From the NCBI RefSeq assembly GCF_988242995.1, contig NZ_OZ547043.1: 64,000 nucleotides of DNA. One strand, 5' to 3'. Below the pieces are notes generated by a model. It had not been told where the DNA came from. It saw only the letters and a program-made list of their open reading frames with translations, and did not search any database. Shown here piece by piece: positions 5,577-58,826 of this stretch (the stretch's first letter is position 1; each line of letters opens with the position of its first letter). A program made the position numbers and the translations under genes.

Positions 5577-5949
5577 CTTGTCCTCATTGAATAAGCGGGG
5601 CTGACAACTTTTCCATGGCGAAATTATCACCACGAAACCCAGCATCGGAGCCACTCCCGGTCCCCAACGCAATCGTTCTCTTTTGCCTGAACTTACCACC
5701 GAAACAGACTGTTAACCATAAGGTAAAATTGATCATCACATTAGCTTATGGTTAAAAAACGCCAAAATCGCAACAGAATAAAAAACCAAAAAACACACCA
5801 ACTTCTATAGAAAGATGATGCGATGAGGAAATTAATTTGAATAAGGCAATATTAAGAGCTGAAAAAATGTCAAAAAACACTAAATCAAAAATTCGTGGCA
5901 TTAGAAAATATAATGCGAAAACGGAGGTGAAATTAGTTTATTTCAAATG

Positions 5950-5980
5950 AGGAAAATCTCCCGGCGAAAAAACCGGGAGA
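5950..5980 (-). terminator. Intrinsic terminator downstream of ubiI (works in either orientation)
   Basis: tctcccgg-cgaaaaaa-ccgggaga hairpin flanked by A/T runs. Confidence 0.55.
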
Positions 5981-10353: not shown

Positions 10354-10454
10354 AAGCATTCGTCGTCAAAGGGAGGAATATTCATGATATGCTACCACTT
10401 TGGGCCCTGGTGGACCAGAAAAGGGCTTGTCTCTTCTCATCAGGGTAGCTATAG

Positions 10455-10850
<396 letters not shown>

Positions 10851-10891
10851 CACTTTTCGGTTTACTGTGGTAGAGTAACCGTGAAGACAAA

Positions 10892-11076
10892 ATTTCTCTG
10901 AGATGTTCGCAAGCGGGCCAGTCCCCTGAGCCGATATTTCATACCACAAGAATGTGGCGCTCCGCGGTTGGTGAGCATGCTCGGTCCGTCCGAGAAGCCT
11001 TAAAACTGCGACGACACATTCACCTTGAACCAAGGGTTCAAGGGTTACAGCCTGCGGCGGCATCTCGGAGATTCCC
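10892..11076 (+). ncRNA. ssrS: 6S RNA
   Basis: AUUUCUCUGAGAUGUUCGCAAGCGGGCCAGUCCCCUGAGCC ... CAUCUCGGAGAUUCCCU matches the E. coli 6S RNA as I remember it; lies between zapA and ygfA. Confidence 0.9.
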
Positions 11077-11149
11077 TTCTTATCTGGCACCAGCCATGAC
11101 GCAACTACCAGAACTCCCACTGACATTATCCCGACAAGAAATCCGCAAA

Positions 11150-11698
11150 ATGATTCGGCAACGCCGTCGTACGTTAACGCCGGAACAACAGCAGGAAATG
11201 GGTCAACAAGCCGCTACCCGGATGATGACTTATCCCCCGGTGGTGATGGCACATACGGTCGCTGTATTCCTCTCTTTTGATGGCGAACTCGACACCCAGC
11301 CACTCATAGAACAACTCTGGCGCGCCGGTAAGCGCGTATATCTTCCAGTTTTGCATCCCTTTAGTGCCGGTAATTTGCTGTTCCTGAATTACCATCCGCA
11401 AAGCGAACTGGTGATGAACAGGTTGAAGATCCATGAGCCAAAACTGGATGTGCGTGACGTGCTACCCCTTTCCCGATTAGACGTGTTGATCACACCGCTG
11501 GTCGCCTTTGATGAGTACGGTCAGCGCCTGGGAATGGGCGGTGGTTTTTATGATCGGACCTTACAAAACTGGCAGCGCTATCAAATGCAACCGGTGGGTT
11601 ATGCGCATGATTGTCAGTTGGTGGAAAAACTTCCCGTTGAAGAGTGGGATATCCCACTTCCTGCGGTGGTTACACCGTCGAAAGTCTGGGAGTGGTAA
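11150..11698 (+). CDS. ygfA: 5-formyltetrahydrofolate cyclo-ligase, 182 aa
   Basis: MIRQRRRTLTPEQQQEMGQQ...; the track ORF starting at 10952 runs through ssrS and is an artefact. Confidence 0.85.
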   Translation: MIRQRRRTLTPEQQQEMGQQAATRMMTYPPVVMAHTVAVFLSFDGELDTQPLIEQLWRAGKRVYLPVLHPFSAGNLLFLNYHPQSELVMNRLKIHEPKLDVRDVLPLSRLDVLITPLVAFDEYGQRLGMGGGFYDRTLQNWQRYQMQPVGYAHDCQLVEKLPVEEWDIPLPAVVTPSKVWEW

Positions 11699-11873
11699 GG
11701 GCGACACACCTGCATCGCCCTGATTGACATCGTTGATTCTTTAACCTAATTTAGTGAGTAAGGGTAAGGGAGGATGACTCCTCCCCTGAGACTGACTGTT
11801 AATAAGCTGGGAAACTTATGAGTAACAGTACAATCAGTATGATGACAAGTCGCATCATAACCCTTCTCCTTCA

Positions 11874-11899
11874 AGCCCTCGCTTCGGTGAGGGCTTTAC
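11874..11899 (+). terminator. Putative terminator of the ssrS-ygfA transcript
   Basis: agccctc-gcttcggtg-agggct hairpin followed by ttaccgtt. Confidence 0.4.
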
Positions 11900-12043
11900 C
11901 GTTACAGCCCCATGCTGCCCTGCCATCGTAAATCCCCATTAAATAAACACAACGCATTGATCTGACTTTGATTTATTTTCTGGAGCAGACTCGCAAAGTA
12001 GAATGCGCAATGCGGCAACGGTGTGGAGAAGGGATAAAAAAAC

Positions 12044-12075
12044 GGGCAAGTCAGTGACCTGCCCGTTAATTTTCA
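12044..12075 (-). terminator. Intrinsic terminator downstream of serA
   Basis: cgggcaggtcactgacttgcccg hairpin followed by a 7-T run on the minus strand. Confidence 0.75.
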
Positions 12076-12086
12076 GAGAAGGGGAA

Positions 12087-13319
12087 TTAGTACAGCAGAC
12101 GGGCGCGAATGGTACCCGGAATAGCTTTCATTGCCTGCAGCGCTTTTTCGGCAACGTCTTCGTCGGCTTCAATATCAATAACTACATAACCCATCTGGGC
12201 GGAAGTTTGTAGATATTGCGCGGCGATGTTGACGCCCTGCTCGGCAAAAATTTTGTTGAGCGCAGTTAGTACGCCCGGACGGTTTTCGTGGATGTGCATC
12301 AGACGACGCCCACCGTGCAGTGGCAGCGAGACTTCCGGGAAGTTCACCGCAGAGAGCGTTGAGCCATTGTCAGAATACTTGATCAATTTACCCGCAACTT
12401 CCAGGCCGATATTCTCCTGCGCTTCCTGAGTCGAACCGCCAATGTGTGGCGTCAGAAGGACGTTGTCAAATTCACACAGCGGAGAGGTAAATGGATCGCT
12501 ATTGGTTGCCGGTTCCATCGGGAATACGTCGATTGCCGCCCCCGCCAGATGTTTGCTCGCCAGCGCGTCACACAGCGCCGGAATATCCACCACAGTACCG
12601 CGCGAAGCATTAATCAGCAGCGAGCCGGGCTTCATTAGTGAAATCTCTTTCGCACCCATCATATTTTTGGTGGACGGATTCTCTGGCACATGTAGACTCA
12701 CCACATCGCTCATATTCAGCAGGTCAGAAAGATGCTGTACCTGAGTGGCGTTGCCCAGCGGCAGTTTGTTTTCAATATCATAAAAGTAAACATACATTCC
12801 CAGCGATTCAGCCAGAATGCCCAATTGCGTACCAATATGACCGTAGCCGATGATACCCAGCTTTTTGCCGCGCGCTTCAAAAGAACCCGCCGCCAGTTTG
12901 TTCCACACGCCACGGTGCGCTTTAGCATTGGCTTCCGGCACGCCGCGCAATAGCAGCAGTAGTTCGCCAATCACCAGCTCCGCAACAGAGCGCGTATTTG
13001 AGAACGGTGCGTTAAATACCGGGATACCGCGTTTTGCCGCCGCATCCAGATCAACCTGGTTTGTTCCGATACAGAAACAGCCAATAGCGACCAGTTTTTC
13101 AGCGGCGTTGATCACGTCTTCGGTCAGATGGGTACGGGATCGCAGGCCGATGAAGTGGGCATCGCGGATGGATTCTTTTAATTGTTCATCATCCAGCGCG
13201 CCTTTGTGAAATTCGATGTTGGTGTAACCAGCTGCACGAAGGCTTTCCAGCGCCTTTTGGTGCACGCCTTCTACCAGCAGAAACTTAATCTTGTCTTTCT
13301 CCAGCGATACCTTTGCCAT
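12087..13319 (-). CDS. serA: D-3-phosphoglycerate dehydrogenase, 410 aa
   Basis: MAKVSLEKDKIKFLLVEGVHQKALESLRAAGYTNIEFHKGALDDEQL...ARLLY matches SerA. Confidence 0.95.
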   Translation of the reverse strand: MAKVSLEKDKIKFLLVEGVHQKALESLRAAGYTNIEFHKGALDDEQLKESIRDAHFIGLRSRTHLTEDVINAAEKLVAIGCFCIGTNQVDLDAAAKRGIPVFNAPFSNTRSVAELVIGELLLLLRGVPEANAKAHRGVWNKLAAGSFEARGKKLGIIGYGHIGTQLGILAESLGMYVYFYDIENKLPLGNATQVQHLSDLLNMSDVVSLHVPENPSTKNMMGAKEISLMKPGSLLINASRGTVVDIPALCDALASKHLAGAAIDVFPMEPATNSDPFTSPLCEFDNVLLTPHIGGSTQEAQENIGLEVAGKLIKYSDNGSTLSAVNFPEVSLPLHGGRRLMHIHENRPGVLTALNKIFAEQGVNIAAQYLQTSAQMGYVVIDIEADEDVAEKALQAMKAIPGTIRARLLY

Positions 13320-38449: not shown

Positions 38450-39155
38450 TAAATATCCTCCGGCATAGCCGGAGGTTTTTCAAATGCGCCTATAAGGCTC
38501 TCTTACCAGCCGCGCCCTAACAGGCGCACACGATCTGACATTTGCATCCAACTTCGTTACTTACGGCCCGTAAACGGGCTGCCCGGATAGGGAATCGATA
38601 ACTGCTCTCCCATTTTATCCTCTTCAAGCTGGTGCTTTATGTAATCCTGTATCTTCGCCGTGTTCTTACCCACTGTATCGACGTAGTACCCTCTGCACCA
38701 GAACTCCCTGTTCCTGTATTTGAATTTCAAATCACCAAACTGCTCGTAAAGCATCAGACTGCTTTTCCCTTTCAGATATCCCATAAACCCGGATACGCTC
38801 ATTTTGGGCGGGATCTCCACAAGCATATGGATATGATCTGCACAGCATTCAGCTTCCAGAATCCGTACGCTTTTCCACTCACACAGCTTTCTCAAAATAC
38901 TGCCTATTGCTCTACGCTTCTCTCTGTAGAACACCTGTCTTCGGTATTTTGGCGCAAAAACTATGTGATATTTACAGTTCCATCGGGTGTGCGCTAAGCT
39001 CTTTTCGTTCCCCATTGGGACCCCCTTTTGATTTCTTGTTTGACACTTGCAGTTGCCAGACCGCAAGGTGTTTTAACAAATCAAAAGGGGTTTTAATAAC
39101 TGGCTCAAAGCTGAAAGCTTTCCGGAACCCCCAGCCTAGCTGGGGGTTTTCTGTG
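38450..39155 (-). mobile_element. IS200 insertion sequence (IS200/IS605 family), about 0.7 kb, boundaries approximate
   Basis: Complete Y1/HUH transposase gene; GC-rich subterminal hairpins at both ends (cccccagcctagctggggg 39128-39146 and cctccggcatagccggagg 38456-38474). Confidence 0.6.
38557..39015 (-). CDS. tnpA: IS200 transposase TnpA (Y1 HUH transposase), 152 aa
   Basis: MGNEKSLAHTRWNCKYHIVFAPKYRRQVFY...HIHMLVEIPP... matches IS200 TnpA. Confidence 0.9.
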   Translation of the reverse strand: MGNEKSLAHTRWNCKYHIVFAPKYRRQVFYREKRRAIGSILRKLCEWKSVRILEAECCADHIHMLVEIPPKMSVSGFMGYLKGKSSLMLYEQFGDLKFKYRNREFWCRGYYVDTVGKNTAKIQDYIKHQLEEDKMGEQLSIPYPGSPFTGRK

Positions 39156-39158
39156 CAC

Positions 39159-39183
39159 AAAAAAAGGGCCGCTTTCGCGGCCC
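39159..39183 (-). terminator. Intrinsic terminator downstream of tktA
   Basis: gggccgcgaaagcggccc hairpin followed by a 7-T run on the minus strand. Confidence 0.75.
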
Positions 39184-39205
39184 TTCTCACAAAGCATCTT
39201 ACCGA

Positions 39206-41197
39206 TTACAGCAGTTCTTTTGCTTTCGCAACAACGTTGTCAACGGTGAAGCCGAACTCTTCAAACAGCAGTTCTGCCGGGGCAGACTCACCGAAGGTGG
39301 TCATGCCGACGATAGCACCGTTCAGGCCAACATACTTGTACCAGTAGTCAGCAATACCCGCTTCTACCGCAACGCGTGCAGTAACCGCTTTCGGCAGTAC
39401 GGATTCACGGTAAGCCGCATCCTGCTTGTCGAATGCATCGGTAGACGGCATGGAAACCACGCGCGCCTTCACGCCTTCGGCAGTCAGTTTTTCGTAGGCA
39501 GCGACAGCCAGTTCAACTTCAGAACCGGTAGCGATGAAGATCAGTTCCGGCTGGCCGGCACAGTCTTTCAGCACATAACCACCGCGCGCGATGTTTGCCA
39601 GCTGCTCTTCAGTACGCTCCTGCTGCGCCAGGTTCTGACGGGAGAGGATAAGCGCAGTCGGGCCGTCCTGACGTTCAACGCCGTATTTCCATGCCACTGC
39701 AGATTCAACCTGGTCACATGGACGCCATGTAGACATGTTCGGGGTCACGCGCAGAGAAGCAACCTGCTCTACCGGCTGGTGAGTCGGGCCATCTTCGCCC
39801 AGACCGATGGAGTCGTGGGTGTAAACCATCACCTGACGCTGTTTCATCAGCGCAGCCATACGTACGGCGTTACGTGCGTATTCCACGAACATCAGGAAGG
39901 TGGAGGTGTACGGCAGGAAGCCACCGTGCAGGGAGATACCGTTAGCAATCGCGGTCATACCGAACTCGCGAACACCGTAGTGGATGTAGTTACCCGCAGC
40001 ATCTTCGTTGATTGCTTTAGAACCAGACCACAGGGTCAGGTTAGACGGTGCCAGGTCAGCAGAGCCGCCGAGGAATTCCGGCAACAGCGGACCGAACGCT
40101 TCAATCGCATTCTGAGACGCTTTACGGCTGGCGATTTTCGCCGGGTTAGCCTGCAGTTTAGCGATGAACTCTTTCGCTTTAGCGTCGAAGTCAGACGGCA
40201 TTTCGCCTTTCATACGGCGGGTAAATTCAGCGGCTTCCTGCGGATAAGCTTTCGCGTAAGCTGCGAATTTCTCGTTCCATGCGGATTCTTTCGCCTGGCC
40301 TGCTTCTTTCGCATCCCACTGAGCATAGATTTCAGACGGGATTTCGAACGGTGCATATTTCCAGCCCAGCTGTTCGCGGGTCAGGGCGATTTCAGCGTCG
40401 CCCAGCGGCGCACCGTGGGAGTCGTGCGTACCGGCTTTGTTCGGTGAACCGAAACCGATGATGGTTTTGCACATCAGCAGGGACGGTTTGTCAGTCACTG
40501 CGCGCGCTTCTTCTACTGCGCGTTTGATGGATGCCGCGTCATGACCGTCGATGCCGCGAATAACGTGCCAGCCGTAAGCTTCGAAACGCATTGCGGTGTC
40601 GTCGGTGAACCAGCCTTCAACGTGACCATCGATAGAGATACCGTTGTCATCGTAGAACGCAATCAGTTTACCCAGCTTCAGCGTACCCGCCAGAGAGCAA
40701 ACTTCGTGGGAGATGCCTTCCATCATGCAGCCGTCGCCCATGAAGGCGTAGGTGTAGTGGTCGACGATGTCGTGGCCCGGACGGTTAAACTGCGCCGCCA
40801 GCGTTTTTTCTGCAATCGCCATACCGACTGCGTTGGCAATACCCTGACCCAGCGGACCAGTAGTGGTTTCCACACCAGCGGTGTAACCCACTTCCGGGTG
40901 ACCCGGAGTTTTAGAGTGCAGCTGACGGAAGTTTTTCAGTTCTTCCATCGGCAGATCGTAACCGGTGAGGTGCAGCAGGCTGTAGATCAGCATGGAGCCG
41001 TGGCCGTTGGACAGCACGAAGCGGTCACGGTCAGCCCAGGACGGATTCTGCGGGTTGTGTTTCAGGAAATCACGCCACAGGACTTCGGCAATGTCAGCCA
41101 TACCCATAGGGGCACCCGGGTGACCGGATTTGGCTTTCTGTACTGCGTCCATGCTCAGCGCACGAATAGCATTGGCAAGCTCTTTACGTGAGGACAT
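39206..41197 (-). CDS. tktA: Transketolase 1, 663 aa
   Basis: [41 protein letters not shown]... matches TktA. Confidence 0.95.
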
Positions 41198-58701: not shown

Positions 58702-58826
58702 TTGCCGGATGCGGCGTGAACGCCTTATCCAGCCGACATGTGGCAGCGGTTGTAGGTCTGATAAGACGCGCAAGCGTCGCATCAGACGTTGATTGCCGGA
58801 TGCGGGGTCAACGCCGCATCCTGCTA
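58702..58826. repeat. REP/BIME cluster between hemW and yggM
   Basis: Three REP units of gccggatgcggcgtgaacgccttatcc type. Confidence 0.8.

Follow-up and report, generated by a model that had tools for sequence, protein, structure and literature searches.

The window analysed here, a 64,000-nt stretch of E. coli chromosome, carries a short run of genes that is the textbook E. coli arrangement of zapA, ssrS, fau (ygfA), and SibC/IbsC. The upstream neighbour is zapA (10521..10850, +), which encodes the cell division protein ZapA and was identified both by Pfam PF05164 (E = 8.7e-21) and by the PGAP annotation of an identical record. The 6S RNA gene, ssrS, occupies 10892..11075 (+). A pyrimidine-rich spacer of 20 nt (11076..11095, +) that contains no Shine-Dalgarno sequence separates the 3' end of 6S from the start codon of fau. 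The best-supported coding region of fau extends over 11096..11698 (+) and specifies a 5-formyltetrahydrofolate cyclo-ligase of 200 aa, annotated by PGAP as a CDS and recognized by PRK10333. The segment from 10400 to 12100 matched 5,425 of 5,426 complete RefSeq E. coli genomes, many of them at 100% identity, and NZ_CP025913.1 matched it base for base (1701 bases compared).

The 6S RNA gene was identified in an Rfam search of the whole window, in which four hits reached their gathering thresholds. The match to the 6S model RF00013 at 10892-11075 (+) scored 139.8 bits (gathering score 46.4; E = 2.2e-28) and covered the entire model (1-187 of 187). An earlier sequence-only reading of this DNA had placed a 6S RNA gene from 10892 onward and had named the Rfam 6S model as the check; the start that it gave was exactly right. 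The 184 nt of the gene were 100% identical to ssrS of E. coli K-12 MG1655 (b2911; locus L002 of our set), the RNA on which the experimental work on 6S was carried out. The two genes share the same closing stem, central bubble, and terminal stem, and they have the same neighbours (zapA upstream; fau, then sibC/ibsC and serA, downstream). The 3' end is annotated differently, at 183 nt in K-12 (the equivalent of 11074) versus 184 nt in PGAP and Rfam; otherwise they differ in nothing of substance.

The sequence folds as expected of 6S RNA. Its minimum free energy was -80.5 kcal/mol versus -56.7 ± 4.2 kcal/mol for shuffled sequences (z = -5.6), and both the minimum free energy and the centroid folds displayed a long closing stem, a large central internal loop, and a terminal stem-loop. 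The internal loop lies between the pairs at about nt 41:146 and 59:132, with long stems on either side. Further evidence for this structure comes from a consensus fold of ten 6S copies, including those of Lelliottia, Trabulsiella, Kosakonia, Salmonella, and four Pasteurellaceae. The consensus had the architecture of the single-sequence fold and consisted of 47 pairs, 15 of which showed compensatory changes on both sides between Enterobacteriaceae and Pasteurellaceae. In both identity and structure, the RNA encoded at 10892..11075 is 6S RNA. On the 5' side of the bubble, the segment CCCTGAGCCGATA (10924..10936, +) was invariant in all ten aligned sequences, those of the Pasteurellaceae included. 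Within it lies U44 (window position 10935), the reported site where synthesis of the product RNA (pRNA) templated by 6S starts. A role of U44 in pRNA synthesis is said to have been described by Wassarman & Saecker in 2006. Given its complete identity to K-12 ssrS, the 6S RNA of the window is predicted to bind the sigma-70 holoenzyme and to template pRNA. Experiments have demonstrated polymerase binding and pRNA synthesis for the K-12 RNA (PMC3299989; PMC1874619).

The gene downstream of 6S is the folate-salvage gene ygfA, now called fau, as the sequence-only reading had it; family models and PGAP give the same answer. Within a 248-aa open reading frame (ORF) whose 3' part is fau, PF01812 (5-FTHF_cyc-lig) scored 160.1 bits (cut-off 27) and TIGR02727 scored 177.1 bits (cut-off 84.9), both over ORF residues 61-242. 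The equivalog model PRK10333 scored 443 bits (cut-off 343) over ORF residues 52-248, which corresponds to model positions 2-198 of 198. Fau is a member of the 5-formyltetrahydrofolate cyclo-ligase family. These enzymes convert 5-formyl-THF to 5,10-methenyl-THF in an ATP-dependent manner, and this is the predicted activity of Fau. The gene is the same as K-12 fau (b2912; PRK10333/TIGR02727/PF01812), with a few substitutions in the protein, such as T26 for A26. The Fau protein of the window has the same sequence as WP_001416800.1, the PGAP product on the exactly matching record.

Where does the coding region of fau begin? The annotations are conflicting. In the K-12 MG1655 reference, fau is annotated at 3056241-3056789 as a protein of 182 aa that starts 75 nt past the annotated end of ssrS, equivalent to window position 11150. 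The sequence-only reading also had ygfA start at 11150. PGAP, on the identical record, places the fau CDS at 11096-11698, giving 200 aa. The methionine codon at 11150..11152 (+) is internal to this longer form, in which it specifies Met19 (residue 67 of the 248-aa ORF). The family profiles start at residue 13 (PF01812 and TIGR02727) and residue 4 (PRK10333) of the 200-aa form; in other words, even PF01812 and TIGR02727 begin 6 residues upstream of Met19. With the 11096 start the domain is complete, including its N-terminal helix, and the 11150 start loses profile positions 1-6.

The sequence-only reading had proposed aligning the YgfA N-terminus as a check. Alignment with solved homologues spoke against the 11150 start. 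Four structures, namely 2jcb (Bacillus anthracis), 1ydm (B. subtilis YqgN), 1sou, and 3hxt (human MTHFS), begin to align at residues 12-15 of the 200-aa form, and their own N-termini fall at about residue 11-12 of Fau, upstream of Met19. In this alignment, R13 and R17 of the E. coli protein stand opposite K10 and R14 of human MTHFS. Lys10 and Arg14, located in the N-terminal helix of human MTHFS, are presumably ATP-binding residues, and a literature search on ATP-binding residues of this helix returned unrelated papers only. As a lead, R13 and R17 of E. coli Fau could be the counterparts of the human ATP-binding pair.

Comparison of related loci provided another line of evidence. We fetched 68 related loci from a collection with one genome per species and located 6S in each; 67 of them could be scored for the start codon, with RQxIR as the search motif. 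An in-frame ATG was present upstream of the conserved RQxIR peptide in every scored locus (67/67). The codon matching 11150 was an ATG in only 16 of the 67, these belonging to Escherichia, Pseudocitrobacter, the Citrobacter amalonaticus/sedlakii group, and Salmonella arizonae. In the other 51 it was none of ATG, GTG, or TTG (CTG 12, TTA 6, CTA 5, GTT 5, CAC, ATC, ATA, and others), and the residue at the position of Met19 was L, I, V, F, T, Y, H, or Q. The SRQEIR peptide between the two ATGs was nonetheless well conserved, and frame and length were kept. In Enterobacter sp. EA-1, the fau copy (1201-1797 of locus L066) still has the upstream ATG (+15) as well as the N-terminal peptide MTQLPDFPSSRQEIRKL, but its best segment is only 57% identical and the frame from the upstream ATG ends before 150 codons. 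This may be a frameshifted or decaying copy.

The strength of the Shine-Dalgarno sequence cannot decide between the two ATGs because both are weaker than the median random position. The predicted duplex with the anti-Shine-Dalgarno sequence has a free energy of -1.5 kcal/mol at 11096 and -0.7 kcal/mol at 11150; the median for random positions is -2.2 kcal/mol, and zapA has -7.8 kcal/mol. A search of the literature for an experimental N-terminus or translation-start mapping of Fau/ygfA found none. Judged from profiles, homologues, and codon conservation, the start of fau is most likely the ATG at 11096, which gives 200 aa, rather than 11150. The 182-aa form appears to be a legacy of the K-12 annotation from which a conserved N-terminal segment has been removed. 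Some use of the ATG at 11150 is possible in Escherichia and the few other lineages that keep it.

One extension of this possibility is that both ATGs are used in Escherichia, producing Fau isoforms of 200 aa and 182 aa. The two ATGs are in frame with each other and conserved in the Escherichia loci (L001-L007), and neither has a strong ribosome-binding signal, which would be compatible with initiation at both. However, the second isoform has no direct support, and the absence of the internal ATG from most genera would limit it to a few lineages. The 182-aa form would also lack R17, an arginine in 67 of 67 scored loci (where the search motif itself required Arg) and in the four solved homologues. 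We consider two isoforms improbable. A little less probable still is a unit in which 6S is followed by fau/ygfA from 11150 only, with 11076-11149 as an untranslated leader. This is the start in the curated K-12 MG1655 reference, the Met codon occurs throughout the Escherichia loci as well as in some loci of Citrobacter, Pseudocitrobacter, and Salmonella, and the local fold is slightly more open near 11150 (-6.6 versus -10.3 kcal/mol). Against it stand the 51 of 67 loci that offer no start codon at that position yet keep an open frame and SRQxIR upstream of it, the Pfam, TIGRFAM, and NCBIfam models and the four homologues that reach upstream of Met19, and the placement of fau at 11096 by PGAP; 11150 likewise lacks a Shine-Dalgarno sequence.

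The fau frame also bears on the 248-aa ORF itself. This ORF is present in the ORF list at 10952-11698 (+) with an ATG start. Its ATG is the 61st nucleotide of ssrS, which leaves 124 of the 184 nt of the RNA gene under the ORF, and the first 48 codons (10952..11095, +) consist of these 124 nt and the 20-nt spacer. The sequence-only reading described the ORF as running straight through ssrS. The ORF does exist and its frame crosses all of ssrS, being open from 10874 onward (a TAG lies at 10871-10873), but the ORF as called covers only the 124 nt, and no in-frame ATG, GTG, or TTG occurs between 10874 and 10952. By our own estimate, an open frame of ~61 codons has a chance of roughly 5% per frame. 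The first 48 residues matched no protein family in Pfam or NCBIfam/TIGRFAM. In genera other than Escherichia, the open frame of fau reaches back no more than 46-71 nt from the 3' end of 6S, or begins past it. The ssrS-fau spacer in these genera measures 18-25 nt, and since its length does not vary by multiples of three, the register of the fau frame relative to ssrS shifts between genera. The lack of a family match, together with the finding that no genus other than Escherichia has the extension open and in frame, identifies the N-terminal 48 codons as a chance open frame. In other words, the reading frame of fau happens, in Escherichia, to lack stop codons upstream across ssrS, and this yields the 248-aa ORF, which was rightly called artefactual in the sequence-only reading.

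That the ORF is nevertheless a real protein whose N-terminus is encoded over the 6S RNA gene is hardly credible and effectively refuted by the family, frame, and annotation evidence: although the ORF exists in a frame open across all of ssrS in Escherichia, its extension has neither a family nor conservation beyond that genus, no Shine-Dalgarno sequence precedes its ATG at 10952 (+0.3 kcal/mol), which lies within stably paired 6S structure, and neither PGAP nor K-12 annotates it. On the opposite strand, a 108-aa ORF antisense to ssrS (10800..11126, -) was also considered and rejected as a chance ORF; it has no Pfam family and is unannotated by PGAP and in K-12.

The locus is thus very probably the canonical E. 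coli ssrS-fau unit, in which 6S RNA is followed by fau from the ATG at 11096 and the 248-aa ORF is artefactual. The unit is not new, and public records annotate it correctly. The sequence-only reading took the ORF as a reminder that an automatic call can mask a structured RNA, but the public annotation that was checked does not bear this out: PGAP has ssrS and fau without overlap, and current pipelines annotate the locus correctly, so no RNA gene is masked in practice. Its observation was confirmed and its interpretation was for the most part right, so that overall it was supported in part, with the fau start corrected. It is the K-12 reference that calls for care. Its 182-aa entry is probably 18 residues too short and misses a conserved N-terminal segment that the family models and homologues cover. 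If the 11096 start is right, a clone or model of E. coli Fau based on the K-12 coordinates represents a shortened protein.

The close association of ssrS and fau is not confined to E. coli. With blastn, 6S was located immediately ahead of fau in 65 loci, and Rfam added four Pasteurellaceae loci with this gene order, which confirms the linkage in Enterobacteriaceae and Pasteurellaceae. Conservation of the ssrS-ygfA linkage is also stated in PMC4064990. The distance from ssrS to the ATG of fau was 13-25 nt in 64 of 67 loci and 100-126 nt in the remaining three, which carry an inserted spacer. The tight junction is replaced by a spacer of ~100-126 nt in Klebsiella spallanzanii (1099-1200 of locus L029) and Enterobacter sp. 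10-1 (1076-1200 of L036), and likewise in an uncultured Klebsiella metagenome-assembled genome (55-153 of L049). In these three lineages the tight coupling between the 3' end of 6S and the start of fau is lost. The conserved tight junction, which in the window has no Shine-Dalgarno sequence, may bear on the balance between 6S maturation and fau expression.

How is the unit transcribed? A consensus scan found a sigma-70-type promoter-like site at 10847..10876 (+), composed of ATGACA and TAGAGT separated by 18 nt, with the TG of an extended -10 element. This site would start transcription ~9 nt before the mature 5' end of 6S. Kim & Lee reportedly placed the start of ssrS promoter P1 at -9 in 2004, and the promoter-like site fits P1. 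A second reported promoter, P2, presumably lies ~224 nt upstream, inside zapA; it was not picked up by the consensus scan. At the other end of the gene, a terminator scan found no intrinsic terminator after ssrS. Instead of a terminator hairpin, the sequence that follows is a C-rich, G-poor tract (11076..11165, +; C 34%, G 16%) of the kind used by Rho for loading, across which the GC skew falls to as low as -0.40. Co-transcription of ssrS and ygfA is reported in PMC3299989 and PMC2848244, and Rho-dependent termination within ygfA is attributed to Chae et al. 2011 in PMC3299989. The dicistronic ssrS-ygfA unit known from gamma-proteobacteria (Hsu et al. 1985; Barrick et al. 2005; Chae et al. 2011) has the same features: 6S sits immediately upstream of ygfA on the same strand, again without an intrinsic terminator between them. 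There is no difference between that unit and the locus of the window, which is its founding example.

These features suggest how the ssrS-fau unit, with fau starting at 11096, may work. Transcription of ssrS would start from the nearby upstream promoter (the promoter-like site at 10847-10876) and, with no intrinsic terminator in its path, would enter the C-rich, G-poor tract, where Rho would end most transcripts. Trimming of their 3' ends would then yield mature 6S. The mature RNA is predicted to form a long hairpin whose large central bubble resembles an open promoter. According to the literature, it would bind the sigma-70 RNA polymerase holoenzyme and keep it inactive during stationary phase. 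When growth resumes, the polymerase would copy a short pRNA from the bubble at U44 (window 10935), releasing 6S. The transcripts that read through would carry fau, with coding from the ATG at 11096, 20 nt past 6S and without a Shine-Dalgarno sequence. Rho loading and the weak translation of fau may therefore compete, and this competition would set the ratio of 6S to fau mRNA.

A stronger version of this model is that the junction functions as a conserved switch. Weak translation of fau would leave bare RNA on which Rho stops transcription, giving 6S, and ribosomes on fau would block Rho and allow read-through. Behind this proposal are the start of fau 13-25 nt past 6S in Enterobacteriaceae and Pasteurellaceae and the pyrimidine-rich leader, which in the window has no Shine-Dalgarno sequence and overlaps a C-rich tract of the Rho-loading type. 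We offer the switch tentatively and regard it as somewhat doubtful. If it is true, the fau start in the K-12 reference is also wrong by 18 codons.

The remaining Rfam hits point to other RNA elements in the window. Just downstream of fau, SIB_RNA matched 11724-11874 (+) over its full model with 136.5 bits; this is the SibC antitoxin RNA, and the ibsC toxin gene lies antisense to it at 11799-11858 (-). Both are annotated in K-12, whereas the PGAP record has ibsC and not the sibC RNA. It follows that the RNA gene missing from automatic annotation here is sibC, not ssrS. The Hfq-binding RNA STnc490 matched 39025-39148 (-) over its full model with 146.4 bits. The match lies wholly inside the coding region of speA (38799-40775, -), near its 3' end, and would represent an sRNA that forms part of, or arises from, the 3' portion of a protein-coding gene. 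The match to naRNA4 (nucleoid-associated ncRNA 4) at 58755-58825 (-) scored 60.9 bits, only just above the gathering score of 59.5, and is probably a REP-type repeat element. Apart from these RNA elements, PGAP annotates a hypothetical protein of 27 aa at window 5867-5950 (+), in the gcvT-ubiI intergenic region.
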